Below the pieces are notes generated by a model. The model did not search any database. It was not told where the DNA came from and was given only the letters and a program-made list of their open reading frames with translations. A DNA stretch of 64,000 nucleotides from an uncultured Nitrososphaeraceae archaeon (GTDB taxonomy: Archaea > Thermoproteota > Nitrososphaeria > Nitrososphaerales > Nitrososphaeraceae): NCBI GenBank assembly GCA_963765895.1, contig CAVXZB010000024.1, positions 192,001-256,000 of the forward strand, given 5' to 3'. The position numbers and the translations under genes were made by a program. Below are positions 20,234 to 47,772 of the stretch, one piece after another (position 1 is the stretch's first letter; every line of letters begins with the position of its first letter).

Positions 20234-20322
20234 ATTAATTTGTTTACTAAAGAGGTAACGGTTTGCATAAAAGCGTAAAGGAATTTCCGGAATTTATATT
20301 ATATATAACCTCAATATTCTGC

Positions 20323-20478: not shown

Positions 20479-20614
20479 TTTCGTCGCAATTGATACAGTA
20501 GCAGAATGCTTGACTGAAAAGTGTTCTGACTGTACAGGATTTTACATCAACAGATTATTTCAGCATCACTTACAGTGCATGCATGTCATAAAAAGGCCAT
20601 GATGTTAGAACAGG

Positions 20615-21202: not shown

Positions 21203-21630
21203 CACAGGTGCGTCTTGAGATGGTTGGACTCATTACTGTTGAAGAGAAAATCAGAGTAGTAAAGGAAACCTGGTCGACCGGAAGGCTTATTGATGAACTA
21301 TTCTTGGAGCTCGACAATGCAAAGGAAATAGATGAAAAAGGTGGCATATCCAAAAGGAAGTATAGTAACGATACTAATTCCATTACAAAGTATGGGGCAT
21401 TACATACCATTTTTAATCTATACAAATTGGATAGAATACCAAATCAAGGGATCGTTATTGTCTATCATGGTACGAGGCCAGCCAATGATCTGGGCTTTAT
21501 TCAGAAATATGAAACATATGATTACTCAGAAAATGAAGCTAAAAAAATTCATCAGCATAAATTCGATTCTGAGTTAATAAACCGACAAGTCGATTCTATT
21601 CTCGGTCAAAAACTGGGGTTTGCACATTGA
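21190..21630 (+). CDS. Hypothetical protein of the element
   Basis: Overlaps the start of the primase gene; no motif recognised. Confidence 0.55.
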   Translation: MCVIAQVRLEMVGLITVEEKIRVVKETWSTGRLIDELFLELDNAKEIDEKGGISKRKYSNDTNSITKYGALHTIFNLYKLDRIPNQGIVIVYHGTRPANDLGFIQKYETYDYSENEAKKIHQHKFDSELINRQVDSILGQKLGFAH

Positions 21631-27958: not shown

Positions 27959-29654
27959 CCACATCTTTACTTTGCGAATTGACAACTCTTTTGTCTAAGG
28001 TCAGATTTACCTTAAATACTGTCTTCCAACATCAATATCCGAAGGAGCCGTTTCAACGAATTTTCTGGCAAACTCTTTGCTATTCCACTCTTCAAATGGA
28101 TCAAGATACAACTTTCTTAATTGACTTAACGTGAGACAGAAAATCTGATTGAATGACTTGACCTCGACTTTTGTTTTTGGGTATATACAATCCAAGTCTA
28201 GAAATGATTCTCTCATCTTATAACAGATATGATATTGCGTGATGAGAGTATTAAAGAAGTAGTTTGTAATTAGTTAGCGCCATCTATCTTTCATCATTCT
28301 GGCTATGGTCGTTACTGATGGGTATTACTGTTCACACCTAGTAGTAATAAAATAGTCTTTGACACCAGCAACAAGTCGAAGTATATAAAACCTAGTACCA
28401 ATCATATTTGCATAGATAAAAAGATATGTTGTGTTTGGATATTTCTCCAATAATAGAAACCCGCTTCAGGGCGGTAATGGGCCGGCATCTAGGAAATAGA
28501 CGTGGTAACTTAACATTAGCGACGGAACAAGCAATTTGGTTATGGGGAGTATTGTGAGCAATACCAGGTATAGTTCCATAAACACTCGATGGTAGAGAGC
28601 ACAGATGGATCTTTTGGGCATAGGATTCTTTCTAATACTGCTTTCCCTTGAGGTGTGATGGCGCGATGGTCTGGTGTAACTAAAGTCTCGCAAGGTTGTG
28701 ATATATAAGAACGAACGAGGGAGTTATTGCATATACCCCACCAATCTATGCCTTCATAATAGACTCCAGAAGGTTCTTTAGTGAATGAATCTGGTTTGGA
28801 TCAGGTTGTTGCATTGAAACTTCGGCTATGGACATTGACTTGTTCGCCTGATCAATAGAAGTTTAGTTTACATCATATCCATCATCTGGCGTCATGCCAT
28901 AACACTGTGCCTCAGTTAAATACTGTGGGCAAATCGTATAACCTTCGTCATCTTCCGCCTCTGATCGGTCTACACCAAAAAATGGTATTCTTATTTGCTC
29001 TATAGTAGGCCCTTGATTGTTTGTCGATCCAAAGTTATCACAAAGTGTAACGTTTGGATAGATCAGGCGTTGAATACAGGAATGGAATGATGCATTGACT
29101 AAATTTAACATAAGAGAGCATTAACGTGTTGAAACCTCGCATACCCAAAACTTGAAGTGCCAAAGCTGAATAACTGAATATTAATAGATCGTCACCACAG
29201 CCTATGGAAGCAGATGCAGAATTGAACGAAGTCCATCAAGTCCACTTGATTCGTTCATTTTAATAATACCATCACATCCAGTGGGCCCCGCGAGCAGACC
29301 TAATCCTCTGATAATCCACCCTATCTGTAGCGCACGAACAAGGTCAAGTTAATTTATGAATGACAACGGCAACTTATTTAACGTTTTTTTATCCTTAGGA
29401 ACACAAGGGAGCGCTGGTACCCCGTCGCTACTACACATATGAACATGGACTCAACTCCAATGGTATCGTCCGTAGTAGCCAGTTGAACGAAGTCGATAGG
29501 GTACCACACCCCGCCACTATATCTTTAAGTCATCAGTTAGTCATGACAGTCAGATTGGAGTGGCATATTAGAAATACGCAATCGAGTATATAGTATTGCT
29601 AATTGTTAGTTCTAGGTTAATTTTCTATATGTCGGATATGGTAGAATCAAATAG

Positions 29655-29745
29655 ATATCAAAAATATCTAGTCCTACGTGTAGATTGACGTCCCTCGATG
29701 ATAAAATTTATGTATGCTGTCTGTGAATAGGCGCGCCAAATAATT
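29655..29745 (+). repeat. Island non-coding repeat, copy C (3' part only)
   Basis: TATCAAAAAT..GTCCTACGTGTAGATTGACGTCCC..GATAAAATTTATGTATGCTGT matches ~35918-35985. Confidence 0.75.
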
Positions 29746-30033
29746 CGTAATGAGCCTGAACCACAACACTATAAAACCAAACAAGTCCTTTCGATTTCAG
29801 GTTAGTCGTGCTCTGAGGCCATAGCGGGTAATGTAGGATTTGGTGCATCGTATCCATCATGAAATCGTTTGTCATATTCTCCGAACATATTCTTTGGAGC
29901 CATTCTTGGCAAGTCTTGCCCATGTACGAATATGTTTTTGTTATTATAAAACAATTTTGTAGAATATTAGAACATTTAATATGACTTTATCAATGTGGAG
30001 AATTCTTTATGAGGTTAGACTTTTGTTAACATG

Positions 30034-30101
30034 GGTAGGCGCAAAACCTTGGGCCTTTTGCTGAAATGCAGAGGCTAAGCAAGGTTCATGTGCAGTTTGC
30101 T
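30034..30101 (+). ncRNA. Conserved structured 5' leader/ncRNA, copy 1
   Basis: Nested stems GCGCA/TGTGC, AACCTT/AAGGTT, GCCTTT(T)GC/GCAGAGGC; BRE-TATA-like GGAGAA-TTCTTTATG ~30 nt upstream; homolog at 41506-41571. Confidence 0.6.
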
Positions 30102-30132
30102 ATTGATGGATGATTTCAATGGTGAGTTATAA

Positions 30133-30294
30133 GTGACTGATAAAGAAAATGAGAAAATCATGCCTCCATTAAAGATAATGAAAAAGAATGAGGTAATGAA
30201 TGATTTGCTTAAACTACTTGATCTGGTTCAGAAACATGCTGATAAAGAAGGGTGTGAACATTGTCTTGACATACTGGAATCTGTCTTTACGTAG
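30133..30294 (+). CDS. 53-aa CxxC protein, copy 1
   Basis: GTG start after GGTGA; MTDKENEKIMPPLKIMKKNEVMNDLLKLLDLVQKHADKEGCEHCLDILESVFT; 40/53 identical to copy 2. Confidence 0.8.
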   Translation: MTDKENEKIMPPLKIMKKNEVMNDLLKLLDLVQKHADKEGCEHCLDILESVFT

Positions 30295-30607
30295 TGAAAA
30301 AGCTCAGTAGATAAAACGCCCCAATTCTTAGATTTTATAGGTAGTCGTGCCTAAGCCTGACACGCACTCAAACCATCGATTCAACTACGATACGATAGAA
30401 TCCATCTTTGAAATATTCAGTATGTTTCTATGCATGTACGCTTGCGTTGCCTGCCCGGCTATCCTAACTCTAATACTAATGCCAATATTGTTGCCATCAG
30501 GACTATTGCCATTACGATAATTGTTCTGGTCTTAATCTATTATATGCATAATAGATGCATAATATTGAATATTCTACTCATTCATTCTAAATGAAGGCGC
30601 TAATAAT

Positions 30608-30647
30608 GATATCTATAGTTAGTATCAGCTACTTAGATGCGAATCAA
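30608..30647 (+). repeat. Island non-coding repeat, copy D (5' part only)
   Basis: GATATCTATAGTTAGTATCAGCTA..GATGCGAATCAA matches copy E. Confidence 0.7.
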
Positions 30648-31149
30648 TATACCACAGTACAGTCTGGTTTAGCATCTCTGGTAGTCAGGTATAAAAGATA
30701 ACAATAGCATGAAAATATCAATAACCTATTGAAGTAGTGGAATGCTGTAACGTTCATTAGGGTTCTATGAGCTCATCACGGACGTTGCCTGTAAAACTCT
30801 ATTGTAAGTTCTCTTACTCTAGATTATGGCTTCTGTTTCAAGACCTCTTCTATGACCGGTTCTAGATATTCACTACTGGTAGCAAATTGACAAACAGAAA
30901 ACTAAGCGATGATAAGTTGCAAAAGGTCATTGATTTGTATAAGCAAGGTAACCTATAAGGCAGATATTTAACGAGACTGGTATTGCTCGTACTACAATAT
31001 TGAGACAAATCCACCTTCATAGTTAGTTTAGTCTATTGGAATAATTCAATGTGGATTGTCGAGCCACTTGACCTCCCATTTTCACAAGGTCATATGAGAC
31101 GATAGCAGGTTTTTATAGACAGGTAGTCTGGAATTTCTTAGTGTATCCT

Positions 31150-31395
31150 CTAGACATTACAAGCACTATTTACACCTGTCACACAAATCCCCATTTGTGT
31201 ACCGCCAGTCGGCCTACCACCCATATCGTCATTAGATGTATGTGCATTTATCATTATTGTCGGTACAGATAATGAAAGTAGGCTTATTCCAATGACTAAA
31301 ACTAAAAACACAAACATGGCATTCAATGATAAAATCGTAGCAAAAACTGCAATTGCACACTTTGGTTTTGTATATTCGTTTTTATTCGTTTTCAT
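31150..31395 (-). CDS. Small membrane/secreted peptide
   Basis: Hydrophobic N-terminal half; tail GICVTGVNSAC. Confidence 0.45.
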   Translation of the reverse strand: MKTNKNEYTKPKCAIAVFATILSLNAMFVFLVLVIGISLLSLSVPTIMINAHTSNDDMGGRPTGGTQMGICVTGVNSACNV

Positions 31396-31629
31396 TCCTA
31401 ATTCTTGCTCTCATAAATGCATTTCAGCATAAGAATACTTAAGTAGTATGAGTTTTTTGCAACTAAATATTGATTTTTTATGTATATTTAGGTAATTTAA
31501 CATAATAGTTACAAGGTAAGCAAGTAATTGCGTCGCAACTAAATTATATATAAAATAATACATAATAAATTGGTTTGAAGTTATTTATTTAACCATGCTA
31601 TACCAAATTTGATGTGCTATAACTAACTT

Positions 31630-32184
31630 AATAGAAGAAAAAGAGATAAACCATCATCATCAGCATCAAAGTAAAAGTATCACCTTTAATTAGACAATAT
31701 TATTTTAGATAAACTGCATCGTGAAGCAGAACAAAAGGATACCAGTGTCAATACATTAGTAAGTCATATAATGAGAATGCACGTTGATTGGTATTCTAAT
31801 GCAGCAAAAGCTGGATTTGTAAGTGTAAGGAGAGGATTGCTAAGTAACCTCATAAATAGACTTCCAGAGAAAGAGATATCTTCCATTGCAGAAAATATAG
31901 CAAAGAATGAAACCAAAGACTTTGTATCCTTCTAAGAAATGAATACAATATTGAATCGAGCTTTAGATGTGATTGAAACTTGGATCAAAATTTCAGGTCA
32001 TCCATATAGACACGAAGTCAGCTACAATCTACACTCATATGTTATACAACATGATATGGGAAGAAATTGGTCTCTTTATATGGCAGAACAATATCGGTTT
32101 TTGTTTGAAGCATTTGAATTGAAAAAAGTAGATTTTGATATAAACTACAATACATTAGATTTTGTTGTTGATACTGAAAGATGA
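31630..32184 (+). pseudogene. RHH-led protein of an expanded Nitrososphaerales family, frameshifted
   Basis: SITF.LDNIILDKLHREAEQKDTSVNTLVSHI (RHH-like)...DW..AAKAGF...VIQHDMGRNWSLY. Confidence 0.65.
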
Positions 32185-32285
32185 CATACGAATTCAATAG
32201 CATATATTTCATAAGACTTGTTTCGTAGCGGAACCTGACTGTAACTTCTCTCATAGCCAATCAAAGTGAATCCTATTGAGGGTAT

Positions 32286-32409
32286 GATGTCATAAAGGTC
32301 AGATATTGTCAGATGGGTCATTGGGCTGTAATGCAGTATCAGTTCAATGCGATTCGAGATCACATGTTGGGGAATGTCAGATAGGTCAGATATTGTCAGA
32401 TGGGTCTTA
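32286..32409. repeat. Iteron-like GTCAGAT cluster containing a 24-bp direct repeat
   Basis: AGGTCAGATATTGTCAGATGGGTC at 32296-32319 and 32383-32406. Confidence 0.8.
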
Positions 32410-32567
32410 TTTCTTGTTCGATATCAAGATTAAATATGTCAAAACTGTATTTGACAGTGAGCCCGAAGTTTTATCATTACTTGTAGGTTGACAAGATTGA
32501 AACATCAATGGACTTGATTAATGAAGTTAAATTCTAGACTAGGAATTCAGAGTTGACCTTGCAAATT

Positions 32568-32655
32568 GATATCTATAGATAGTAGCAGCTAATCGATGCG
32601 AATCAACAGACTAATTCCGTTAATATGCAATACGTTTAACACATAGGACAACATT
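32568..32655 (+). repeat. Island non-coding repeat, copy E
   Basis: GATATCTATAGATAGTAGCAGCTA...GTTAATATGCAATACGTTTAACACATAGGACAAC matches copy F. Confidence 0.8.
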
Positions 32656-32890
32656 ACATAGCATACACAAAAAGTTATACACTATGCTAAGAATATTTGA
32701 AGAAGAGACTGAAACTAACTAATGACCAAACAGGAAGTTAAAGACATGAATGGTTGGAATAGAATCAGAAGAGAAGTTCTTGTTGCTCATACAGTTGCAG
32801 ATGAATTCTAGTTTAAGATCTTGACTTATATTCTTGAATCATCAATTTTTGAACCAATTATATGCTTTATTGTTCCTGTTCCAATAATTT

Positions 32891-33778
32891 CTAGCCTGAA
32901 GTGATATTTTTTAGTATGCTCTCCACTTCAAGCAGATTTTCATCGTGTATCTCCACTATAATTTTGTGTAGTTGTTTTAGAACATTATCTGCGCCTCTTA
33001 ATGCTATAACCTCTGCTCCTTCAATGTCCATCTTCATCACATTACAATCATAACCATGCAAAATATTATCGAGAGTGTCGCAGCCTACCGGGTTTGAGGG
33101 AATATCATCACTTGATCTCGCAGTAATGCTGAATTGTCCCGTATAAACATGGCCACGTTGTCCATCTGACAAATGTTCGTAGATATAACTAACACCTCTG
33201 TGATCTGATACCGCCTTGTTTACAGTTCTTATATTTGTAAACCCGTCAAGGTCAACATTCCTGCAAAGTGCTGTAAAGGTTTCAGGATGTGCCTCTATTG
33301 CAAAAATTAGCACTCCCTTACTTTTGTATTGTTTTGCAATTTGAAGGAAGTACGAGCCTACATTCGCTCCTACGTCAACAAATACATCATTTTCATTCAA
33401 AGCGAGATGTTTTTTAAGGTCCTTTTCTCTTTCTATGAAGAGAACATAAAAATCATCTGTATGTTTTCTAGGTATTACCCTTATATTATTTAGTTTACAG
33501 ATTTTTTCTGCAAATAGCCATTCAGGTAGGAAATTTACATAGGAAATATTATTATTTTTCAGGAATTTGTCCCTAAGGGACTTTCCCATCTTGATTCGTA
33601 AAAATAATCTATATAATATATAATAATGCTTTGCATAGTGGACAATAAACTTCGGGTTGAGTTTATTTCCTGCTAAGAATGCAGAATCATTCGCTACGGC
33701 TACGGCTTTGTATAGATTCGTGGGACTTCTCCCAACATCTACTTCACTAGTAGGCGTATGTAAGTAGAAATACCTCAT
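32891..33778 (-). CDS. FkbM-family methyltransferase
   Basis: FVDVGANVGSY, AIEAHP, NKAVSD, TLD, MKMDIEGAE, IVEIH; both termini uncertain. Confidence 0.85.
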   Translation of the reverse strand: MRYFYLHTPTSEVDVGRSPTNLYKAVAVANDSAFLAGNKLNPKFIVHYAKHYYILYRLFLRIKMGKSLRDKFLKNNNISYVNFLPEWLFAEKICKLNNIRVIPRKHTDDFYVLFIEREKDLKKHLALNENDVFVDVGANVGSYFLQIAKQYKSKGVLIFAIEAHPETFTALCRNVDLDGFTNIRTVNKAVSDHRGVSYIYEHLSDGQRGHVYTGQFSITARSSDDIPSNPVGCDTLDNILHGYDCNVMKMDIEGAEVIALRGADNVLKQLHKIIVEIHDENLLEVESILKNITSG

Positions 33779-35078
33779 ATTAGGATCAGCAGTCAGAACG
33801 GCCTACCTCTTGAAAGATAATGGTTTCTCATCACAGAGATCAATTATGGAATCCCACAAGTTATCAATTTATCATTTACTAATAATAGGTTGCAATATTT
33901 TTATATTGATAACTTACTCTGATTTGCTCAGAGAAATCTATCTAGCGGTAAGATGATAAGTGGTCTATAAGGCATATTCAAATACTTCAATCGTCTACCT
34001 GGGCCAAGAAGATGTATTTGATAGTCATATGAAGTATTTACAGGCAGTTGTTATTAGAATAGTAAAGCCTATTAATATTGTATGGCCGCCATCCAAATAT
34101 GGCTGAATGCGGGACTGGAAATAATGTCGTATAACGTGTGATGATGGAAGTCTCCATGATTTGATCTCTTCGGTTAAGATATTGACGTTGTCCTTTTCTT
34201 CTTTTTATTCATTTTGAGACACTTTCACTATCAACTTGATGCGTTTACCCCCTTTTTGTGGGCGCGCCAAACATCATACGGAAGTCGAATTAAAACCAGA
34301 AGACTTCAGCAAAGACATGTCTCTCAATCCTATGCTGACTCATGATCTTACCATCAAGACAATTACACATCATACAGATACTGTTAGTGTAATCGTGCCT
34401 GCTCTCTAAATCCAGTAGCCGTTGACCTAAGGGGCCTAGTACGACTATCTAATGCTTTAACTCGGGTAGAGGAGCGATTGCTACGATATATAGAATGCGC
34501 GCCTCAGCCGCTGTCACTGTCATCGTCAGCCGAGTCAAGTCTTATTCCTAACATCCATGTAGTAAAGCAAAGTCTTACATCCAATAGATAGATATGACAA
34601 CTTACCAGCAGCAGAAGAAAGAAAAAATAATTAGAAAAGCGGTCGAGGATAAAGACAATAGTAACTGTAAGAGGTAATGACGGTAATCCTATTGTATTTG
34701 ATAATGAGAAGAAATTCACACAATATCCAAAGCCGCTAATGAAAAAGCAACAAGCGAACTAGGTAGGGTAGGTAGGTAAGTAGATATGTCATTCACAACT
34801 GAAGAAATGAAGTTACTAACAAATATTTATACATAAACTAGTAATGATATACGATAAAATATATCGAACCACAAACACAGACACAGACTTCACGTTAGAA
34901 GAAAAAGCGAATATAAAGAAACTTAGAGATAGATTATCGCAATAATAACTAAATATGGTGTTTGAGGGTGCACCATCCTCAAACACCATCGTTCTGTCTG
35001 TCTTACCATCGGATTCTTTATAGGACATTGGTTATAGGTCGATAACATATTAAAATCTTATAATTAATTAATTAATTA

Positions 35079-35424
35079 AAGTGGCGTCGGGGACAAACCC
35101 CTGCGCCCCCAAACGCCACTTATTCGTCCTGTCCTGTCTTTAGTCACCAGTCTATGTATGGCATAATCTATGAAGCAAACATCTATTAAAATTTTAAGCT
35201 TAAATCTAACCTATGGTGGTTAGCGAATGTCTCGGGTGAGTCGAACCACCAGACCATTAAAAGTCCACTAAAATTCCTGTTTGTTGATATCCTCTTCTAT
35301 AACGACCTTATGAGAGGCCTGAGAATCGGGCAAGCCATACCAAGAGCATTATATTGATAAACTTGAATGTTGGCAACGGGGAACCGAAAATTATGCCATT
35401 AGAAAGTTTCGTGGTGGGTTCCCC
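35079..35424 (+). ncRNA. Three GC-rich stem-loops (35079-35121, 35214-35251, 35378-35424), candidate small RNAs
   Basis: Terminal stems AAGTGGCGT/ACGCCACTT, TGGTGGTT/AACCACCA, GGGGAACC/GGTTCCCC; each starts 30-31 nt after a TATA-like box. Confidence 0.45.
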
Positions 35425-35469
35425 ATCTGAAAATGGTCCAATTCACGCTCAATTTGAGCACAAACGGTG

Positions 35470-35686
35470 ATGATCCAACTATGCTTTACGTAGCGCTACC
35501 AGACCATAAATTAGTCCAGAGCCCATGTTATTCTATTATAACAATGAAGGCAGATACTATTACTGTAGGTTGCATCCTGAAATAAAGAACACAAATCTGG
35601 AATCCATAAAGGACTACATAAAGTACAAAGATCCAGCAACACATAAATCAGAGCTATTAAAATTGTCCAAACTTACTCATAACTAG
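35470..35686 (+). pseudogene. Small Cys/His (Zn-finger-like) protein remnant, copy 2
   Basis: SPCYSII...YYCRLHPEIKNTNLESIKDYIKYKDPATHKSELLKL; one frameshift. Confidence 0.6.
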
Positions 35687-35755
35687 TTTAGCCTATCAAT
35701 AGGATAAAACTATCAGGACTTGTGTACTTAGCAGAATTGCCTATTCTATAGACTT

Positions 35756-36012
35756 ATATCTATAGATAGTAGCAATTAGTCAATTCGAATCAAAATACTT
35801 AGTTCTGTTAATACTCAATACGTTTAACACATCGGACAACGTCGGATTTTTAAACATCCGGCATAATTATTCGGAAAAAGCGTTAAATAGGATATGCGGC
35901 AGGCCAGATTATAAATATTATCAAAAATGTGCGTCCTATGTGTAGACTGACGTCCCAGGATGGTGATAAAATTTATGTATGCTGTATTATCACGAGGCAC
36001 TCAAAACATCAT
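35756..36012 (+). repeat. Island non-coding repeat, copy F (most complete)
   Basis: ATATCTATAGATAGTAGCAATTAGT; hairpin GTCGGAT/ATCCGGC at 35841-35862; ATTATAAATATT; ATAAAATTTATGTATGCTGT. Confidence 0.8.
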
Positions 36013-36083
36013 GTAAAACTGGAGATTAATTAGGGACGGAAATTTGAGAAATATCATAGTCACTTGCAATTTGCTCCTTTCTA

Positions 36084-37753
36084 TCAATACCAGGCTGAAG
36101 TCTGTAATTGTGTAAGTGCTGCACAACAAGTAAAGTGATCTTTACCTGGACCGCCAGTAAGAATATCATTACCATTGCCTCCAGATATTTGGTCGTTGCC
36201 GGAACCGCCTTGTATCACATCATTTCCTGCACCCCCATTCAGAATATCATTTCCTTGACTCCCTGCAATGCGATCGTCTCCGTTACCACCATCAATAATA
36301 TCCGCTCCATTGCATCCATTTATTCCGTCATTTCCACCTCGGCCATTAATGATATCAACACCTGAACTTCCTATTAGCGTGTCATCTCCATTTGTACCCG
36401 TTATAATCCTGCCAGTTCTGCTGTTACTAACACATGAACTATCTGGGGGCGGGGTAGGGGTAGTTACTTGCCAAGTAAATGATACAGAAGGTCCTTGAAG
36501 TGCTGTACTATCAGTAGCCCTAAAGTGAGATGTATGCTGTCCAACACCTAAATTACCGTCAGTAACAGGACTGGAACAGCTTGAAAATGGAAAGTTATCT
36601 AGGCTGCATTGTAGTGTTATAGGCGGTGTACCTCCAGAAGTAGTTACTTGAAATGTTATTTTGTTAGATGTGGTCGAGCCTCCGTTTAACACTGGGTTAT
36701 TATTTCCATCGATAGCGGAAGATAAAGTGCTTGGAGGAGTCTGAGGTGTAGTAGAGATTACGGAGACAGTATTTCCGGGAGCATCATTTGAATTATAATT
36801 GGTCACATTAACATTATGATGTACTGGATCATATACTGGTGTGACTGGCCCCTGCCCTACGGTAACATTTCCTATTACCTGATTGTTTGTGCCGTTAATT
36901 AATGAAATATGGTTCGCACCTTGGATGCCCACATAGATAACACCTGTATCTTGATTAAATCCAACACCTGTCGGATCAGGACCTACATTTACTGTAATAA
37001 TTACACTATTTGTAGAACTGTCTATAACAGAGACAAACTGGGTATCATGATTTGCCGCATATATATTACCATTGACCGAGTCATATGTAAGAAATACAGG
37101 GTTTGGTACATCAGATACAATATCTATCACAGTTCTAGATGCTCCATCTATTACCGAGATGGGTCCTGGTCCTGTATTAGGAATGTATGTAAGCCCATTG
37201 CCGGGGTTAAAGACTCCTTGTAGTGGTTGTCCTCCAACCGTTATAGTATCAATTACTGCTCTGGTTGCTCCATCTATTACTGAAACAGTTCCACTTCCGG
37301 CATTAGCTGCATATATGTAGTCATTAACAGGATCATAAATCACGCCGTCTACTATTGAGCCACTGCTTTGTATCGTGTCAATCACATTATTAGTTGGAGC
37401 ATCTATTACGGATAGTGTGTTTGAATATACATTAGCTGTATAGATGTAATTGCGCTTTGTATCCACAGCAAGTTCACGTGGAGTATAATTATTTGGTAGG
37501 TGAATAGTTGTAAGTACACTTTTTTAGAAGCTGTATCAATTACTGATACAGTGCTTGAAGCAATATCTGCAGTGTACACATGACCTGTAATTGGATTATA
37601 AATTGCGCCATAAGGTCCTATTCCAACAGTTATTGTGGCAATTACAGAATCTGCATGCACAATAGAAGAAGATAGCGTAGGCGCAATTGCCGATATAATA
37701 GTAGCTATTACACATAAAATCATAGTAACAGTCCGCGCTTTTATAACCTTCAT
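36084..37753 (-). CDS. Secreted YVTN/YncE beta-propeller + Ig-like domain + RTX-type Ca-binding repeats, frameshifted near 37480
   Basis: Signal peptide ending VHA-D; repeated IYAAN..SGTVSVID blades; LQCSLD..FSSCSSP; GGNGDD/GGAGND nonapeptides. Confidence 0.85.
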
Positions 37754-38063
37754 GGTTAAAAGAAAACTTACGATAACATATTTAACATAAAGGTAGCACC
37801 ATTATATAAAATTCCAGATTATATATGGGTTAATCAGAATTTATGATAAGAATGTACATGATTGGAGTAACGACTAATTTTCTGATTTATCTTCATGTAC
37901 GAGATCAATGAAATACGTGTCTTGTAACTATATTGTTGGACATCGTTCCATAATGTCCTACATTGTGATACCTTCATCAGTAATTTAATATATCTTGTAC
38001 AAATTGAATTTCATTATATTATAAAGGAATATTAAATAGCGTTCTCATGAAATCTGACCAATA

Positions 38064-38300
38064 TTGCCCACATTCTTGGACGTCCACTCTATCGGGACGT
38101 TGACTGAGTATGGTCTCATAAAAGCGCAGAATGCACCCAGAGATAAACTAGGAGTAAAGACGGTAAACATTCTCTACAATTTAGAAGGCGGCGTGATTTA
38201 TTGCTTGTTAGATTCTCCAAATAAGGAGGCAGTGGAAAAACATCATAATAACATTGGCGTAAAAGGTGACTGGGTAATTGAAGTAAAAACTACTCGATAA
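38064..38300 (+). CDS. DUF4242 (SCO4226-like nickel-binding) protein
   Basis: MPTFLDVH...IYCLLDSPNKEAVEKHH..GVKGDWVIEV. Confidence 0.8.
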   Translation: MPTFLDVHSIGTLTEYGLIKAQNAPRDKLGVKTVNILYNLEGGVIYCLLDSPNKEAVEKHHNNIGVKGDWVIEVKTTR

Positions 38301-38427
38301 ACATAAATTATAGGATTACTTCGAGCCAAAGTAACACTTAATTAGTATATTCCAATGACGGGCCACGCACCAGATGCTACAGATACTATAAAAAGAGAAT
38401 AAGAAATGAGCCTATTCATTTCTCCAT

Positions 38428-38664
38428 TTAATGAAGCAGTTGCGCCGCAGTCCATCCTACACGATAACCTAATTTGTAATCGAAGCAGTATGTGTCTGAA
38501 TGATCGAAACTGCAATGGTCGTCAAAATTGTCTCCATTCATATATGCATTTCTTGCATCCCAATATCCTTGATTGTATGCATTTGAATGAGCTAATACGG
38601 AATCACCTTGCAGCAGAGCCCCTAAAGCAAGAGACATGATTAGCGCTAAGCTGGTTACTATCAA
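38428..38664 (-). CDS. Small secreted Cys/His/Tyr-rich peptide
   Basis: Signal peptide ending VLA-H; YNQGY...CSFDHSDTYCFDYKLGYRVGW. Confidence 0.65.
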   Translation of the reverse strand: MIVTSLALIMSLALGALLQGDSVLAHSNAYNQGYWDARNAYMNGDNFDDHCSFDHSDTYCFDYKLGYRVGWTAAQLLH

Positions 38665-38697
38665 TTTTTTCGTTGTCTATCCACCTCCTAGACTATT

Positions 38698-39103
38698 TTA
38701 CTTGCCGTATTCTCCGTTGTCAGAATCGCTGCTTGATGATGCCGCTTGTTCTTGAGTTTGTCGTGGAGCTATTACCACATTATTGTGACTGCCATCAACG
38801 CGTACGTTAGAGTCGCCTTGTGCCTGGCTCTGGGTTTGCTGCTGTGTTGTCGTCTCACCTGCCAATGAATTCCAACGAATACCCATTACAGAATTCATAA
38901 GTGTGCTTTTTATCATTTGGACAGCTCCTATCATGACCGTGCTTGCTGCCATCACAATTGCTATAGTCGCAGGCCGCATAGTTCTGACCGGGATCATATC
39001 CATCATTATAGCGTTTTTGATCTGATATGTGTGCAAAACCACTGGATGTCAAAGTAGCAACCATCATGATGGCAACCATTGCTGCAAATATGCCATTGTT
39101 CAT
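38698..39103 (-). CDS. Secreted Cys/His peptide paralog with Gln-rich tail, frameshifted near 38880
   Basis: Signal peptide ending GFA-H; RYNDGY...CPNDKKHTYEFCNGY; tail WNSLAGETTTQQQTQSQ in another frame. Confidence 0.6.
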
Positions 39104-39649
39104 CTATAGCTCAATCTCCTCTAAGAGAACTTTGCCTCCGTCCTTTGCCACATTATCTAACGCTGTTTCAATGCTGAGTAGCATTATTTCGCTATAGCCA
39201 TACTGTGATATGGTAAATTTTATCTTGTATTTACCAAGAGCCTGAACTGCAAACAAAGATCTCTGAGAGTCCAAGCAATATATTTTACTGTAATCACTGT
39301 ATTTCTTGTAGCCCATATGCACCCTTAGATATGGACTTGTCTTGCAAATCTGATGATTCGCAGTTGATTGGATACTCATATCGCAGCTCCCTTAATTGAG
39401 CCTTCAATCAAAGTTAGGATTGAGTATAACACTCGCCTCTGCCAATCTTTTTTGTTATGCATAATCCCCAGGAATAGGAGGACTTTTTGTAAGATTATGA
39501 CCTTGAGATGCCTGCTATATTTGGAACTAGATTTGTTATTATAGGATCTGCCTGTAAAAATGGCATAATGTAAACTCCATATTTTCTTTTTTCCTAGTTT
39601 ACAATATATTTAAAAGGAACACCCTTTATTTCTAATACGATATCCCCTA

Positions 39650-41000
39650 ATGAAGGGCCTTCTTACGAGCGCCATAGTAGTTATCGTTATTCTAATGATA
39701 CTTTGTACAGGTACTGAATTCTTTTACCCTGGTTGGAATACCTGCTAAGACGCAAAAGCAGAGGGTCACGATTACTGCAATACTTGAAGACCAAGGGGAT
39801 CCACGAAGATGGAACTCCTTATTTCAGCCAGCGCTACAAGAACTAAGAGCAAAACATCCTGATTTAGAGATATTACTAAATGCCACGAAGCTTCCATATA
39901 ATCAAGCTAGACCACACATGTTAGCTGCATTAGAGACAAAGACTCCTATTGATCTAATATCTTTGGACCAAATATGGCTTGGAGAGTTCGCTCAGAAACG
40001 ACTCTTGACTGATCTTACCAATTATACCAAGATTTGGGGAAGAGAAAAAGACTGGTACGAAATGAATTGGGATGGTGGGATTTATGGTGGAAAAGTCTAT
40101 GGAATATGGGCATGGACAGATATCAGAGGAATATGGTATTGGAAAGATCTGTTAAGTGAGGCAGGGGTCAATCCAGATTCATTAAAGACTTGGGACGGAT
40201 ATATTGCAGCTGCAAAAAAACTAAACACAGTTCTCAGACCTCAAGGAATAGAAGGTATACATCTTACTGGTGCTAGTCATTCTCCTGATTTATGGTATCC
40301 ATATCTGTGGATGCTTGGCGGTGAAATTGTGAAGATGAAGTCGGGACATCCAACAAAAGGTAGTTACTGGTTTCCTGCGTATAATAGTAGTGAAGGTGTA
40401 AGGGCTATGAATTTTATCAAGCAACAGGTCGATGCCGGGATAAAGCCGCAGAAAAATCATTATTGGGGATTAGAATTTATTGACAGAAAGTTTGCAGTAA
40501 TGATAGAGGCATTACAACATCATATAAATGAGAGATTTCCAATTACTTCGCCTGAAAAGCGAGCAGAATTTCAACAAAAAGTAGGATTCATACCAATGTT
40601 TCCTGTACCAAGTCCAACCAATGCGACCGCTAGTTTAATGGGAGGCTGGGAATTGGCTGTTCCATTGACGTCGATACATAAACAGCTTGCGTGGGATCTG
40701 CTCGCAATCATGCTAAAACCCAAAATACTTGCCCCATATTTAGGAGCACACTCTAATCTTCCTACACAGATACCTATAGGTGAGGGTCCATATTCAGGAG
40801 CAATATATAATACAACACCCTATTACGACCAATTGATCGCTTTACTTAAAGCAGGGCACAGTAGACCCAGTATACCTGAATATCCTAAGATAGCAGAAAA
40901 TATTCATCATGCACTCGACGAAGTTTACTATGGCATGAAAGAACCAAAGCAAGCTCTAGATGAAGCAGCTAATAAATCTGCAAAGGCATTAGGATGGTAG
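39650..41000 (+). CDS. Sugar-type extracellular solute-binding protein (family 1), disrupted 5' end
   Basis: N-terminal hydrophobic anchor; DLISLDQIWLGEFA, LTDLT, KVYGIW, KTWD, MGGWELAV, RPSIPEY, PKQALDEAA. Confidence 0.85.
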
Positions 41001-41149
41001 CAACAGCAGATCATCATCATCATCTACTACTGCACTTATGTCAGTACAATTTTCTGTACAAGATGTAAACTAGTCAGTTTTCTAGTTGAGAATCTGGAGA
41101 CAAAAATTCTCTATGCCACAGACTATTAAATGCTAACACTCCTCCTTAC

Positions 41150-41362
41150 TGAAAGCTGATCGTAGAATTATGCTTAAATCTACTAATCCTAAGCGTTTCA
41201 GACAGCGTCGGATTTCTCATCAGAGGACTATGATAACATCGGAAATAGTGCCTACAAGATGTGCGGCATACCAAACACCCGTAAAATGAGGTATAATTTT
41301 TATTGATTGAGATTGATAATAGATCATCATAATGTGTATATATCATGAGGCGCCAAATAATG
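41150..41362 (+). repeat. Island non-coding repeat, copy G (diverged)
   Basis: CAGACAGCGTCGGATTT..ATCGGAAA..GATGTGCGGCATACCA..GAGGCGCCAAATAAT is colinear with copies F and C. Confidence 0.6.
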
Positions 41363-41505
41363 TATTCTTTTGCACTGACAGGACTAAGCTCAGCCGTGGA
41401 TAAAATTTTTTGTTCTTATAAAATAGTTTAGTAGAACAAAAGAACATTTTATATGACTTTATCAATGTGGAAAATTGTTAAAAGAGCTTTACGTTTTATT
41501 TAGGA

Positions 41506-41571
41506 GTAGGCGCAAAAACCTTCGGCCTCTGGCTTAAATGCAGAGGCTAAGCAAGGCGTATGTGCGGTTAC
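41506..41571 (+). ncRNA. Conserved structured 5' leader/ncRNA, copy 2
   Basis: GTAG.CGCA/TGCG.TTAC, CCTT/AAGG, GCCTCTG/CAGAGGC; GGAAAA-TTGTTAAAA ~30 nt upstream. Confidence 0.6.
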
Positions 41572-41600
41572 AATTAATCACCATTCCAATGATGAAACTA

Positions 41601-41765
41601 ATGACTGATATAGAAAATGAGAAAGTCATACCACCATTAACGTTAATGACCAAAAGTGAGGTAGTAAATGATTTGCTTAAACTTCTAGATATGGTTCAAA
41701 AACATGCAGATAAGGAAGGATGTCAACATTGCATTGACCTACTAGAATCTGTTTTTGAGCACTAA
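41601..41765 (+). CDS. 54-aa CxxC protein, copy 2
   Basis: MTDIENEKVIPPLTLMTKSEVVNDLLKLLDMVQKHADKEGCQHCIDLLESVFEH; start chosen by alignment with copy 1. Confidence 0.8.
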   Translation: MTDIENEKVIPPLTLMTKSEVVNDLLKLLDMVQKHADKEGCQHCIDLLESVFEH

Positions 41766-41845
41766 AATAAGACTCGGCCGGTCGGGGTACGCTAGTTAAA
41801 TATTGGACGTAATATTCAAGGTGCTATAAGGTGCCCATAAATTGG

Positions 41846-42030
41846 TATCTATATGTAGTAGCAATTAATGGATGTAAACCAATGTCTTCAATTTAGTAAA
41901 TCACCAGTAAGCTTTAACACATCAGACAGTATTGGGTTCTTGAAACGCCCAGTATAATCATATCGGAAAAATCCCTTCTAATACAGTTTTGTGGCGCACC
42001 AAATTATAAATATTTTCTAAAAAGTGGTAT
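41846..42030 (+). repeat. Island non-coding repeat, copy H
   Basis: TATCTATATGTAGTAGCAATTAA...TTTAACACATCAGACA; hairpin TATTGGGT/GCCCAGTA at 41930-41954; ATTATAAATATT. Confidence 0.75.
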
Positions 42031-42094
42031 CATGTGAATAGACCAGCTTGGTTGAATACACATAGATATTGATTAGATGACACTGCCCAAACAT

Positions 42095-42335
42095 CTAAGT
42101 CATGGGCGGCGCACCAGCAACCTGTCTTCTCCCTATCTCCTGCAATCTAGCCGATAGTGACACAAGTTGATCTGATAATTGGGCTATGACATCATCCTTT
42201 ACTTTATCGCGCTGTCCTAGTGACTGATTTAGATCTTCTAATTCTTCTGCCTTAGTTTGTATATCGGCGCCTTGTCTTTCTAACTAATGGATATTTAGGA
42301 AGATTGAATAAGGCTCGATTTTGCTGAATTTTTGC
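42095..42335 (-). pseudogene. Probable C-terminal remnant of a tyrosine integrase
   Basis: KFSKIEPYSIFLNIH*LERQGADIQTKAEELEDLNQSL...LSDQL resembles coiled-coil tails of Nitrososphaerales integrases (recalled, not searched). Confidence 0.5.
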
Positions 42336-42368
42336 CTAATCTAATCTGATAAGCAAGTATTCATAGCA

Positions 42369-42389
42369 AACTAACCAAACAGTTAGTTG
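42369..42389 (+). repeat. Putative attR core
   Basis: Identical to 18082-18102; context AGCAAACTAAC-CAAACA-GTTAGTTGGTA. Confidence 0.7.
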
Positions 42390-42442
42390 GTAGTTTGTTA
42401 CTTACTATACCATTTATATGTAATTACTTTATTACATTAGAT

Positions 42443-43410
42443 ATGGTGATGTTAGCGTAGATACAGACTCATATGGTAAAATTCCTCCGAACAACCAAAA
42501 AATAAAGGCTTCTGTTATAACAACATGCCCAGGATGTAAGAACGAGAGTATAATCACCGATTCTGAATCTGGAGAGATCATTTGCAGTAATTGTGGTCGT
42601 GTAATCTCTGATAAATTACAAGATATTGATTCCGAATGGCATAGATACTTTGTCGATGAGTCTAAGATAGGAACCAGGATTGGGAGTCGTAGTTCGCTCG
42701 CCCGTCACGATATGGGATTGTCTACAGTTATTGGCAGATCTGGCAGAGATGCCAGCGGTAACAAACTTGATGCAGTTATGCAGACCAAGATGAATAGGTT
42801 AGCTACTTGGGATTTAAGATCCCAATTACATACGCCAAAAGATCGAAGTCTCAGACAAGCATTTTTTAAATTAGATGTTCTAAAAGATAAACTCGGACTC
42901 TCGGACAGTATTGTCGAGAAAGCGGCATATATCTATAGGAAGGCTCAGTCGAAGAAAATTACTCGTGGTAGAACCATCTCAGGGGTCCTAGCAGCCGCAA
43001 TATATATTTCATGTAGAGAAATGGGAATCCATAGGACACTGAATGATATCGCTGCTGCATGCAGTGTAAAGCGTAAGGAGCTGTCAAAAGATTTCAGGAT
43101 CCTTTGTACCCGACTTGATCTTAGAATACCTCAACCTGATCCCATGAAGTGCATAGCAAAAGTTGCAAATAAAGTCAAACTAAGCGAGAAAACGAAACGG
43201 CAAGCCTCGCTGATCATGAGCAACGTCACAAAGGAAGAAATATCTGCTGGAAAAGATCCTATGGGTCTAGCTGCATCTGTGCTGTATCTATCTGGAATTA
43301 AAAATGGAGAAATTGTTACCCAATCAAATATAGCTGCTGCAGCCGGGGTTACTGAAGTAACCGTTAGAAATAGAACAAAGGAATTAAGAGATAAGCTTAT
43401 GCTTAATTAA
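42443..43410 (+). CDS. tfb: Transcription initiation factor TFB paralog, apparent frameshift near the start
   Basis: Zn ribbon CPGC...DSESGEIICSNCG is in frame with the 42712 ORF; HDMGLST, GRTISGVLAAAIY, GKDPMGLAA, GVTEVTVRNR. Confidence 0.92.
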
Positions 43411-44198
43411 TTCCTGTAATTTCTGCCTTTGACATAGGTAGCGTTGCCTGGTAGTTAGGCCCAATTTCTCTAATCGGTTATATGGTAAGTCCATTGAGGT
43501 ATCGAAGTGCCCGAAGTAAATTATCTGAGATTGAGACGCTAGAATAGATGATATTGCCATTCGGTGTATCTCTTAGATATAAGATTACCATAACACATGA
43601 TTTTTCTAACATGAAATTTGGTTATACTATTTAATTCGAAATAGCAAGTATCGATACTGATAAAATCTCAAGAAGTAGAAGCTAATTGCTTTGAACACTA
43701 ATTTCTCTTCTGTTTTACATTAGTGGTACTCCATGATTTTTCATCTAAGCTTTCTCCATTGAGTCCTAGAACGTTTCTATTATTCAATTACAATTCATTT
43801 TATTTCGTTCGGAGTACCTGCCCCGCACAGATCATAATTCAAATTTTACAAGCGATAAGTTCCGATTCATTTACCTAGCCTTAATGATTAGTTGTTATTG
43901 CTTGGGAGCAGACAAATAGGGATCTCGAGTCTTGCCTAGTTATTTCAATGTTGAATAGCAATAGCATATCCTCGAAAATTGTTTGGACATACTTGTGTTG
44001 ACAAGAATAGTCTGAACTGCCTGTTTCCTAGTTTGACATATATAATTGGAATATTTGCAGAAATCACTATGATACTATCTTGACATACAGCCAGATTGTA
44101 ATAGTAACACTACTAGTTTTTCCAATTGGGAAGCTTGAAACAAATTCCAAGAAATGTAGCATATATTGTACTAATTCGCATACAGTACTTATACTAAA

Positions 44199-45082
44199 TT
44201 GGCAAAATTAGTTATAGTTACGGGGGCATCTAGTGGTATCGGTAAAAAGACCGTTATGAGGTTACTTGAATCTGGATATCAAGTTATTGGACTAGCTAGA
44301 CGATTTGATAAACTAGCTGCTGAGCAGTTACAATCATCACATAAGATACAGTCTAACGGGAGTTACAAGCACACCTATGTACCATTGGAATTTGATATCG
44401 CTAAACCAAAAGTTTTCACTGAGGTTATAGACAGAATTGTCTCTATAACCAATGGTAGTGAAATCTATGGTCTTGTAAATAATGCAGGCTACCTTGAGCC
44501 TGGAGCAATTGAAGATTTGACTATGACAAACTTGAGAGATCAATTTGAAACAAATTTCTTTGGCCATGTAGATTTTACAAAAAAGTACTTGCATTGATGG
44601 TGGAACGAAACCAATCAGGCGGGAGAATTATAAATGTTAGCTCATTTGCAGGTCTCATCTCGCTTCCATTGATTGGAGCTTATGCAGCTTCAAAACATGC
44701 ACTTGAAGCGGTGTTTGATGCCCTCAGAGTGGAGCTCTGGAATACAGATATCAAAGTCATAACCATTAATCCTGGTGTCATCAGTACTGGTATATATGAT
44801 ACCTTGAAACATAAGACTGAGGACATACTAAATATTAAGAATGTTAATAAAACAAGATTTGTTGTGGCATATAACAGATATCTGCTGAATAATAATTATT
44901 ACACAGGACTGAATCCAATTTCTGTAGCGAACGTTATTCTAAAGGCTGTTAGTTCACTGAAACCACATCACAGATATTTCGTGGGCTCTAGAAAAGAGAT
45001 ATTGATGATAAGGCTCCTGCCGTACATACCTGAAAAGCTATTATTCACCCTACTCGCTAACAGAATACACTCCCGAACCTGA
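44199..45082 (+). CDS. Short-chain dehydrogenase/reductase, frameshifted near 44585
   Basis: TGASSGIG, LVNNAG, NVSS, YAASK. Confidence 0.9.
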
Positions 45083-45927: not shown

Positions 45928-47772
45928 TTATGGTAGTCCAAATGCAGCTAAAGTTCCTTCTCTATTGGTCGAACCTTTGCGTTGACTATCATCAGTTTTT
46001 CCAGTGGGTACAAATAACATTCCATCTGCAATAGAGGGCCCGACCTGGCCAATCGGGGCGTGTAAGTCATATTCCCATAGTTTATTCCCAGTTTCCTTAT
46101 CTAAAGCTAAAATTATTCCGGATCTACTCGCCTTGACATGGTTTGAAGTCGTCTTAGTCCTTTCAGTGAACGGGATGTAACCGGCAATGACGATTTTGTT
46201 GGTAACTAGTGGTGATATCCTTGGTGGAAATTTTGTCTCATATTGCCATTTGACTTTACCATTTAGCAAATTCATTGCAATTATTGTACCATTGCGTAGT
46301 CCGTCTTGTATAGTGTGAGGTGCAGTATTCTTATGTCCGGCAATCCCATCTGTAAAATAATTCACTCCTCTATTTGTAGCCGAAATATATAGAGTATGGC
46401 TAGCATCATCTACAGCATGATAGTTTGATATTCCATAAAACCAAATCATGCCACTGCCATTCGTGAAGGGATCGATTCTGTATTGTAATGAGGCCCTATA
46501 GTCCTCCACCAGATTTCTTTACCTGTGGTTGCGTCCATTGCCATTACATTTCCCATCTTATCATGTCCTACAACTAATTTCTTCTGAGTTCCATTATCAA
46601 AGGTAACTTTGCTAATACTGCTTCCCCATGAGGTGATCCCAATCATGCGTATCTGGGATTGTTACATTCAGAACTGTTCCATGTGCAATAAATGGAGTAG
46701 CCCATATTATTTTGCCATTAGTAATATTTACGGCAATCATGTGGTTTGAATAAAGGTTCGGTGATTGCCGACTAGTCGCATTAAAGTTTGGCGATGCACT
46801 TCCTATGGGCATGTAAATGGTTCCCGTTTCAGGATCGACCGATCCTCCGGACCAATCGTTTGCTCCAGCATTATATGCCGGAGCAGAACGTGAATTTACC
46901 CAATCACCCACTGTAGTCTGCAGGACCCAGATCACATTACCATTAGTACGGTTTAATGCTGTGATATTTCCTCTAACAGTTACAACGCCACTGGATGTAT
47001 CATCATGACCGGCTGATCCAACGATCACATAGTTTCTCCAAACAATTGGAAATGTAGGAATATTATATCCTGCCTTAGAATCGCCCAAAACTTGCGATTT
47101 CCAGACAACCTTGCCAGTTGTGGCATTAATTGCTATAACATTGGCATTATATGCAGTACTCTGCATAAGATTATTCCGTCATTAAAAGCCAAACCCATTG
47201 TTGGACCATTACCTCCATGATGTTTCCAGATTACATCTCCAGTATGAGTATCAAATGCTATCACAGCGCCGGCGTAATCCTGTACATATCCTTTATTGCC
47301 AATAACTATTGGAGGGTCTTGTACCTCAGCATCATTAATTAATCTCCATTTAAGCTGCAACATTGCTACATTGCTTCTATTAATTATCGTTTGAGGACTA
47401 TTTCTGGTATCGTAGACATCATGGTTAACAGTTATCCAGTTATTGGCATTACTAGGTTCTGTTCCTAGTTCTGAGTAGGGTTGGTCAGGTGACATGCTAG
47501 AATTATGATGTAGTTTATACATACTAATGTGAGGAAATACATTCTCTGTAACTTGCTTGTCGATCCACTATGTCGATAGATTTCAGTTCACCTGAATGTC
47601 CTGGCCGAATTTGATTCGACTCAATAGACAAAATAACAGAATCCCTATTTTTGTCCTTCAACTGACTGTTTGTTCCTGGAATAGGACGCATGACTAAGAA
47701 AGTCACAATTAATATTAAAATTATAAACGCAAAATCATCTTTTAAAACGAATTTGTGCAGATTGGATACCAA
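45928..47772 (-). pseudogene. PQQ-binding-type beta-propeller protein in five consecutive fragments
   Basis: Repeated A[FILM][DN]xxTG..[IVL]W docking motifs; VDPETGTIY; DTHDWD; C-terminal LAAFGLP. Confidence 0.85.

Follow-up and report, generated by a model that had tools for sequence, protein, structure and literature searches.

Protein-binding stem-loops within mRNA leaders are known from the autoregulatory leaders of ribosomal proteins (r-proteins) and from archaeal L7Ae, which recognises a kink-turn (k-turn) in the 5′ untranslated region (5′ UTR) of its own messenger. A single conserved hairpin with an asymmetric internal loop, kept at a fixed distance from one gene and conserved in sequence rather than covarying, is what these leaders share with the element described here. 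It lies in a window of 64,000 nucleotides (nt) from an uncultured Nitrososphaeraceae archaeon (assembly GCA_963765895.1, contig CAVXZB010000024.1, positions 192,001 to 256,000), in which a model reading the letters alone had noticed two diverged copies of a structured leader RNA followed by a small CxxC protein (the original prediction). The element is a real and hitherto undescribed lineage-specific cassette, made of a promoter, a leader hairpin and a small-protein gene, which is under selection, has been amplified and is decaying; literature searches returned nothing on such an element in Nitrososphaerales. Our preferred reading, to which we give a probability of about 0.45, is that a cis-acting stem-loop in the 5′ leader controls a small metal- or thiol-related protein, and that both have been amplified together as a cassette. 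Soil Nitrososphaeraceae are drivers of nitrification with a heavy dependence on copper enzymes, and their post-transcriptional control and small proteins are almost uncharted.

On the protein side, Haloferax encodes one-domain zinc-finger micro-proteins with two CPxCG pairs and a zinc-ribbon-like fold, and the thiol-disulfide oxidoreductases DsbA and PDI carry the active sites CPHC and CGHC, respectively. As for gene neighbourhoods, the closest described system is the pair formed by DUF1326 and DUF2182/PpoB2 (COG5486), for instance DmdF/DmdE of Roseobacters (PMC12992908). According to that source's account of the Roseobacters, the DUF1326 and DUF2182 genes are always adjacent and their function is unknown (PMC12992908), while the PpoB2 of Marinomonas is described as delivering copper to tyrosinase (PMC2855505). 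The cassette adds to this picture a compact, conserved and testable leader element and an orphan small-protein family, linked by genomic position to these barely understood DUF1326/PpoB2 genes.

Both modules stand where they had been placed, at 29935-30294 (copy A) and 41407-41765 (copy B), and their proteins are indeed identical at 40 of 53 positions (75%). The length of 53 amino acids (aa) holds for copy A, which starts with GTG, and not for copy B, whose product has 54 aa counted from its ATG (Table 1); an alternative in-frame ATG lies at 41589, and the called open reading frame (ORF) of copy B can be extended to an upstream ATG at 41538, an extension without a counterpart in copy A. When the DNA of the two copies is aligned, homology sets in abruptly at 29935/41407 and fades at the stop codon. 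The resulting unit of about 355 bp holds, in this order, an AT-rich palindrome, a box resembling the TFB recognition element and TATA box (BRE/TATA-like), a conserved block, a variable spacer, the stem-loop, a Shine-Dalgarno (SD) sequence and the ORF. The operator-like palindrome of copy B holds a TTATAAAA box, and its arms are separated by 4 nt; the left-edge box of copy A holds a degenerate form of the same palindrome. Between the TATA-like boxes (29975-29982 and 41447-41454) and the hairpin there are about 55 nt, and not the 30 or so first given. Given the usual archaeal spacing between TATA box and transcription start site (TSS), transcription would begin around the 3′ end of the conserved block.

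The hairpin consensus reads CCUUGC, 0-2 nt, GCCUCUG, a loop of about 9 nt, CAGAGGC, UAA and GCAAGG. The unpaired TAAGC bulge of the original prediction shrinks to the three nucleotides UAA, which stand opposite the 0-2 nt, the adjoining G and C being paired in most copies. Outside this core, a weak stem (GCGC/GUGC, as in copy A) is paired in 87% of the cells of the alignment, and the nucleotides of bulge and loop are conserved. The predicted fold of copy A has -34.7 kcal/mol (z -2.86, equalled by 1 of 200 shuffles) and that of copy B -28.1 kcal/mol (z -1.62, 14 of 200 shuffles). In a k-turn, tandem sheared G.A pairs come after a 3-nt bulge, whereas the UAA bulge is followed here by Watson-Crick G-C and C-G pairs. 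Unlike the r-proteins and L7Ae, moreover, the product of the cassette is acidic and unlikely to bind RNA itself.

Downstream of the hairpin, a moderately conserved stretch ends in a near-invariant GTGA, extended to GGTGA in copy A, that precedes the start by 7 nt and is complementary to the 3′ end of the 16S rRNA of the genome (...GGATCACCTCCT). Because this SD-like GTGA is conserved, a leadered mRNA is implied. Between hairpin and start no TATA-like box is conserved in the units of the hairpin-bearing type (type 1, see below), RNAalifold predicts no conserved helix, and no T-run terminator was seen by eye in copies A and B. A second 16S gene sits at the extreme end of contig C48 (G000:C48:134-1646) and scores 1076 bits with the archaeal model versus 1497 bits; its 3′ end looks bacterial to us, and it may represent a chimeric contig end or contamination.

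Counting the element as a duplicated module falls well short of its real number. The assembly searched, a metagenome-assembled genome (MAG) of 4.9 Mb in 88 contigs and 88% complete, contains eight full-length units according to BLAST and genome search, two on C24 and one each on C61, C42, C19, C25, C48 and C6. Together with a promoter-less unit on C40 they make nine hairpins. C49 adds a promoter with half a hairpin, and further copies, either ORF-only or diverged, lie on C10, C30, C76, C84 and at C24:98350. A hidden Markov model run over the six-frame translation finds 14 ORFs of the protein family at E <= 5e-13, which is a minimum for the genome. R1, a covariance model built on the hairpin, matches exactly the nine hairpin-bearing units and not one orphan hairpin, its only extra rows being weak reverse-strand echoes at the same places.

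The cassette is almost confined to one genus of soil ammonia-oxidising Nitrososphaeraceae. The seven genomes of this genus contain 9, 1, 1, 2, 2, 8 and 0 hairpins, and the leader DNA found matches in five of the six other ones; among 194 genomes from other genera of the family it gave one strong match and four short weak ones. In the genome collection, 19 ORF loci were recovered, 18 of them in five Nitrososphaeraceae MAGs and the last a weak bacterial match, and a metagenome scan added 121 relatives, of which 80 were kept. A protein search returned 62 proteins, of which not one has a name other than "hypothetical" or carries a Pfam domain, and a profile search of 1.84 billion representatives gave 32 matches (clusters), all of them short except for one repetitive protein of 699 aa. 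The viral contigs searched held no relatives of the cassette protein.

Hairpin and type-1 ORF are strictly coupled. At 99 external loci anchored on the ORF, many of whose sequences had served to build the model, R1 matches 67, always on the ORF strand; at loci with complete upstream DNA its match stops about 35 nt short of the ORF match. The remaining 32 comprise six loci without upstream DNA and 26 of other ORF subfamilies; broken or truncated ORFs also occur among them. These subfamilies are type 2 (VTTTK...QKIIAPLQALG), type 3 (MNDIEKGKVL), type 4 (VTDRQGKIVSPLEI, with Gly for the first Cys) and type 5 (MLMSTSEV). The original prediction had named hairpin-less homologous ORFs as the result that would count against it: they exist across the family, at these 26 loci, and not within the type-1 subfamily. 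The type-2 leader shares with type 1 the AGAACATTTTA..TAT motif of the TATA-like box region and the words ATGTG.A.AAT and TTTCAA...GTGA, and forms a GC-rich hairpin distinct from that of type 1.

Selection was followed in 64 units, obtained from 87 hairpin matches (65 distinct full-length sequences, from which the spurious short plus-strand hit L009 was dropped). Nucleotide diversity is 0.12 in the hairpin and as low as 0.04-0.05 in its stem segments, 0.33 in the spacer (0.36-0.47 in its core) and 0.116, 0.095 and 0.220 at codon positions 1, 2 and 3; the stretch between hairpin and start, at 0.27, is less conserved than the hairpin, as had been claimed. Forty-nine ORFs are intact (38 with ATG, 10 with GTG and one with TTG) and 15 are broken. 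By the Nei-Gojobori method, the 1176 pairs of intact ORFs show a proportion of synonymous differences (pS) of 0.347 and of nonsynonymous ones (pN) of 0.095, with 0.119 for the hairpin and 0.346 for the spacers in the same pairs; the contrast between regions within a unit is affected neither by the non-independence of the pairs nor by gene conversion, which may occur among paralogues. The pN/pS ratio is 0.27 in the coding frame versus 0.74 and 1.26 in the two off-frames, and falls to 0.14 in the VQKHADKEGCQHC core (codons 31-45). These values mark the ORF as a genuine gene under purifying selection. The hairpin diverges about as slowly as nonsynonymous sites and far more slowly than synonymous sites and spacers, so that protein and hairpin are both maintained. 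In codons 2-15, pS is low (0.185, with pN/pS 0.62), which hints at an overlapping constraint at the nucleotide level near the start. Across the hairpin itself, a reading frame stays open in at most 19 of the 64 units, whichever frame is taken.

With 11 D/E against 5 K in a hand count, the protein is acidic; it has no hydrophobic segment and carries a conserved H-x5-C-x-H-C, whose H35, C41, H43 and C44 (54-aa numbering) are invariant in the paralogues of the genome and at least 90% conserved in the wider alignment. Because of this acidity, both nucleic-acid binding and a membrane toxin are argued against. AlphaFold2, fed with a 46-sequence alignment, predicts a helical hairpin (helices 18-39 and 42-52, pLDDT 75.7) with the Cys pair at the start of helix 2. 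No cut-off match was obtained in Pfam and no match in PHROGs; the PDB sequence search gave nothing below E 0.09, Foldseek against PDB gave 0 matches, and the best Atlas structure had a score of 0.76 and belonged to no named family. Like the Haloferax micro-proteins, the cassette protein is shorter than 70 aa, lineage-specific, present as several paralogues and endowed with a CxxC motif, but it has one CxHC with an upstream His on a two-helix hairpin. A zinc-ribbon or zinc-finger micro-protein was accordingly rejected, since there is one CxHC and a His six residues upstream instead of two pairs, and no Pfam match. With DsbA and PDI it shares a C-x-H-C at a helix N-terminus, but it consists of only two helices, lacks the thioredoxin fold and has no sequence or fold matches in PDB.

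Genome context gives a further indication. A DUF1326 gene lies downstream on the same strand in three ORF subfamilies: in type 1, at the C48 copy and its orthologues L052, L068, L069, L082 and L129; in type 2, at L027; and in type 3, at L019, L023, L099 and L101. The DUF1326 proteins concerned begin with a CNCxWGCPC motif. At L160, a three-gene row runs from the type-3 small ORF through DUF1326 to a full PpoB2 (PF09948, 163.5 bits), and the third gene of L019, cut by the end of the locus, reaches 28.5 bits versus a cut-off of 28.7. The resemblance to the known DUF1326/PpoB2 pairs thus lies in the small ORFs of three subfamilies that precede DUF1326 here. The differences are that a small ORF is not described with these pairs in the source's account of them, that most DUF1326 loci are without it and that most type-1 cassettes stand alone: the neighbourhood occurs at 9 of the 99 external loci and is missing for most copies, including both in the window. 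The metal- or redox-sensing role first proposed for the protein gains indirect support from the conserved His and Cys and from the DUF1326/PpoB2 genes downstream in three subfamilies; a metal (copper) or thiol role is plausible, but amounts to guilt by association.

In the mechanism that we favour, an archaeal promoter, consisting of the palindromic operator-like box and the BRE/TATA-like box, would drive an mRNA with a leader of about 125 nt. This leader would carry one strongly conserved interrupted stem-loop (stems of 6 bp and 7 bp on either side of the UAA bulge, capped by a loop of about 9 nt), followed by a GGUGA-type SD and by the frame of a 53-54-aa acidic two-helix protein with a His-x5-Cys-x-His-Cys site. 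The stem-loop would most likely act in cis as RNA, either as a protein recognition site or as a stability or translation element, setting the expression of a single gene, whose product would most likely be a small metal- (Cu/Zn) or thiol-handling accessory, functionally related to copper-chaperone systems of the DUF1326/PpoB2 type. The cassette would have been copied by segmental duplication into repeat-rich, gene-poor islands, with many copies decaying there. As for the helix, changes were placed by parsimony on a tree of the columns outside the hairpin; once the two often-unpaired apical pairs are left aside, 14 Watson-Crick (WC) pairs changed to G.U and 5 to A.C (one-sided binomial about 0.03, computed by hand after a post hoc cut). 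The stem changes thus lean weakly to a plus-strand RNA helix. The proposal of a cis-regulatory RNA is strengthened by the purifying selection on the hairpin and by its coupling to the ORF, and weakened on the side of RNA structure by missing covariation.

Several results weigh against this interpretation. RNAalifold finds 12 pairs, 0 of 12 with a compensatory double change; in a 19-pair structure 93.5% of the cells pair, a value equalled by 430 of 500 column shuffles, and the covariation score is equalled by 486 of 500 (82 to 486 of 500 across scores). Over all 15 pairs the G.U bias is weak, with 17 changes from WC to G.U and 12 from WC to A.C, besides 7 other mismatches and 2 compensatory changes. 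Since covariation is absent, the RNA structure is not proven. Contigs of four soil metatranscriptome runs (X1, X2, X5, X7), compared with 29500-43500, cover only the transcription factor B (TFB) gene region at 42451-43497 plus scraps, and none lies on either unit. That the hairpin is a 5′-UTR RNA element is for these reasons an inference, neither Rfam nor Pfam having returned a match either. The 26 hairpin-less loci have conserved upstream regions of their own, type 4 carries Gly instead of the first Cys, and hairpins in broken units are as close to the consensus as those in intact ones (mean 4.47 versus 4.49 mismatches). Neighbours within 4 kb are mostly unrelated and no gene is a universal partner, the types encountered including MsrA, SnoaL-like, thioredoxin/DsbA, pyridine-nucleotide disulfide oxidoreductases, hemerythrin, HxlR and TFB. 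Finally, of about 27 DUF1326 loci in the seven genomes of the genus, only 4 are preceded by the small ORF, each subfamily accounting for one or two of them, and in the cassette's own genome the figure is 1 of 6. A bolder version of our reading, in which the stem-loop, bound by a metal- or redox-responsive factor, tunes a copper/thiol-handling protein partnering DUF1326/PpoB2, while the block spreads as a portable module, is rather unlikely; if true, soil ammonia oxidisers would gain both their first defined class of cis-regulatory RNA and their first small accessory protein related to copper.

The alternative in best standing, unlikely all the same, is that the conserved hairpin functions at the DNA level, as an upstream regulatory site where a transcription factor meets an operator or cruciform, with transcription starting downstream of it. 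In its favour, the sequence is conserved and does not covary, the 15-nt palindrome and the repeated AGAACA words of the promoter region are typical of factor binding, and in type 2 a TTATATAA box, noticed by eye, precedes the GTG by about 30 nt, which would be in keeping with a leaderless mRNA. However, type-1 units conserve no TATA-like box between hairpin and start, the conserved GTGA implies a leader, and the one-sided stem changes lean to G.U on the plus strand.

Distinctly unlikely is a reading in which the leader itself is the functional product, a small or dual-function RNA independent of the ORF. Few parts of the unit are as conserved as the hairpin, equally so in units with broken and intact ORFs, and some decay in the former would be expected if the element were purely ORF-serving, unless the breaks are recent. 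They consist of frameshifts, in-frame stops, lost starts (ACG or GCG) and, in one form, a Cys-to-Tyr change with a frameshift (the broken units of this genome are C42, C6 and C40, and the C-terminus of C48 is altered), and they do look recent because the broken copies keep a recognisable ORF sequence. An independent RNA is further opposed by the purifying selection on the ORF, by the lack of a T-run terminator between hairpin and ORF (by eye) and by the fact that the hairpin never occurs without an ORF or its remnant.

Improbable, too, is that the hairpin serves as the recombination or mobility signal of a small mobile cassette, in the style of attC or of the subterminal hairpins of IS200/IS605, which would explain the amplification. 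In its favour are the copy numbers from 0 to 9 within one genus, the 15 of 64 units with broken ORFs, the location of copies in repeat-rich islands adjoining an integrated-element remnant, and two breakpoints at the hairpin: at C49 (G000:C49:8899-9020) the promoter and the hairpin 5′ arm are fused to an unrelated Asn/Gly-rich open frame, the homology ending inside that arm, and at C40 (G000:C40:5374-5444) hairpin and ORF follow foreign upstream sequence, with the break at the hairpin 5′ edge. However, the hairpin lies inside the unit and not at its end, no terminal inverted repeats bound the unit, the extent of shared flank differs by copy (a 960-bp block, for instance, is common to copy A and C61), no arrays were seen, none of the ORFs of at least 110 aa within 4 kb of 13 other copies or paralogues is a transposase or integrase, and the viral contigs searched yielded nothing. 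The units lie among other dispersed repeats, and their spread looks like segmental, repeat-mediated copying with birth and death rather than like a fixed-end transposon; it shows how a block of promoter, leader and ORF can amplify and then decay in a repeat-rich archaeal genome. A miniature inverted-repeat transposable element (MITE) or other small transposon was rejected on the grounds of the variable shared extent and of the missing inverted repeat around the unit (target duplications were not searched for), and so was an integron cassette with attC, the copies being dispersed on eight contigs with the hairpin 5′ of the ORF. As for the integrase encoded at 18153-19598, it is part of the element remnant and more than 10 kb away.

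More improbable still is a riboswitch, for example a metal-sensing one, as a controller of the ORF, an option that the original prediction had raised. What invites it is that a structured and conserved leader precedes a gene that may be metal-related, and that bulge and loop nucleotides are conserved too; but the architecture is not riboswitch-like, with a single hairpin instead of a multi-helix junction, no covariation, no conserved second helix or expression platform between hairpin and SD (RNAalifold), and no Rfam family beyond chance snoRNA-like rows when E values up to 10 are admitted. The toxin-antitoxin pair suggested at the same time, type I-like with a toxic small protein and a restraining RNA, is barely credible: the small ORF with its structured leader, its many copies and their frequent inactivation would fit, but the protein is acidic with two predicted amphipathic helices and no hydrophobic segment, is under purifying selection in many genomes, and has no evident antisense promoter and no PADLOC-type or toxin-antitoxin neighbour.

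Other structures considered for the leader were discarded. A second, SD-sequestering hairpin is predicted for copy A only and is not conserved (RNAalifold). Long-range pairing of 41452-41464 with 41618-41630 has C.A at one of its central pairs in 49 of 64 units and shows no covariation, and a pseudoknot between the loop and an upstream segment (CAUUUA/UAAAUG) would have its upstream partner in the most variable spacer (by eye). An upstream ORF in the block ATGACTTTATCAATGTGG has its first ATG replaced by ACG, ACA or similar in many units, and its stop is lost in both window copies. A bulge-helix-bulge splicing motif has its bulges 4 bp apart; here they stand opposite each other (by eye). As for an archaeal C/D box sRNA, only a C-like box, missing from most subtypes, and one CUGA over the start codon are present, with no terminal D box, and the corresponding Rfam rows have E values of 1.9-8.2. 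Rfam 15 matched only a tRNA in the whole window; at E up to 10 it gave chance rows, C/D-snoRNA-like and others, with 12-21 bits against cut-offs of 39-94.

Table 1. Features of the two window copies, of the three-gene row at L160 and of the primase-polymerase remnant (window coordinates except for L160, which is numbered within its locus).
Feature	Position	Strand	Remarks
Copy A, left edge: AT-rich box with TTATAAAA motif	29935..29969	+	homology to other copies starts here
Copy A, BRE/TATA-like box, GAACA + TTTAATAT	29970..29982	+	conserved in 64 units; putative promoter
Copy A, conserved block GACTTTATCAATGTGGAGAAT	29983..30003	+	diversity 0.12-0.15; predicted TSS at 3′ end
Copy A, interrupted stem-loop	30038..30093 (core 30047-30084)	+	fold; R1 match C24:222032-222100
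Copy A, SD-like GGTGAG, 7 nt 5′ of GTG	30121..30126	+	16S complementarity; GTGA conservation
Copy A, ORF, 53 aa, GTG start	30133..30294	+	
Copy B, 15-nt inverted repeat TTTTGTTCTTATAAA / TTTAGTAGAACAAAA	41408-41422 / 41427-41441	+	repeat search; 87% complementary
Copy B, BRE/TATA-like box, AGAACA + TTTTATAT	41441..41454	+	
Copy B, conserved block GACTTTATCAATGTGGAAAAT	41455..41475	+	predicted TSS near 41472-41480
Copy B, interrupted stem-loop	41509..41565 (core 41519-41556)	+	fold; R1 match C24:233503-233572
Copy B, ORF, 54 aa, ATG start	41601..41765	+	
Shoulder 3′ of copy B	~41766-42025	+	common to part of the copies only; diversity 0.39-0.51 in 50 extended copies
L160 (G002:C8:14989-18531), type-3 small ORF	2573-2740	-	
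L160, DUF1326	1465-2226	-	
L160, PpoB2	250-1428	-	
Primase-polymerase piece, Prim-Pol	21627-22475		
Primase-polymerase piece, D5_N	22534-23112		
Primase-polymerase piece, DUF5906 helicase part	23163-23984		

Both cassette copies sit in a gene-poor stretch that follows a remnant of an integrated element (18153-23984), in which a tyrosine integrase (phrog_1, E 3e-17) precedes a primase-polymerase split in three ORFs. The broken neighbours that had been reported are there: an SDR gene at 44199-45082 is split into two overlapping ORFs, a PQQ dehydrogenase lies in three pieces at 45928-47522, and a gene for a solute-binding protein is truncated N-terminally. The shoulder downstream of copy B includes, according to BLAST, a member of a separate dispersed repeat family. 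Pieces of a dispersed family with a MITE-like look and several dozen BLAST copies across contigs follow copy B (41837-42043) and precede copy A (29656-29750), with another piece at 32563-32655, and a second family of about 200 bp (42109-42333) has around 30 BLAST copies in the genome.

Between the two copies, at 38064-38300, there is a gene for a SCO4226-like "nickel responsive" protein of 78 aa, and upstream of both, at 14316-14771, one for a DtxR-type metal-dependent repressor. Adjoining copy B, a full TFB gene, with Zn ribbon and two TFIIB repeats, occupies 42487-43410 and marks the window as archaeal. Its region (42451-43497) is present in contigs of all four metatranscriptome runs, and in three of them the contig starts at 42451-42458, about 30 nt before the open frame.

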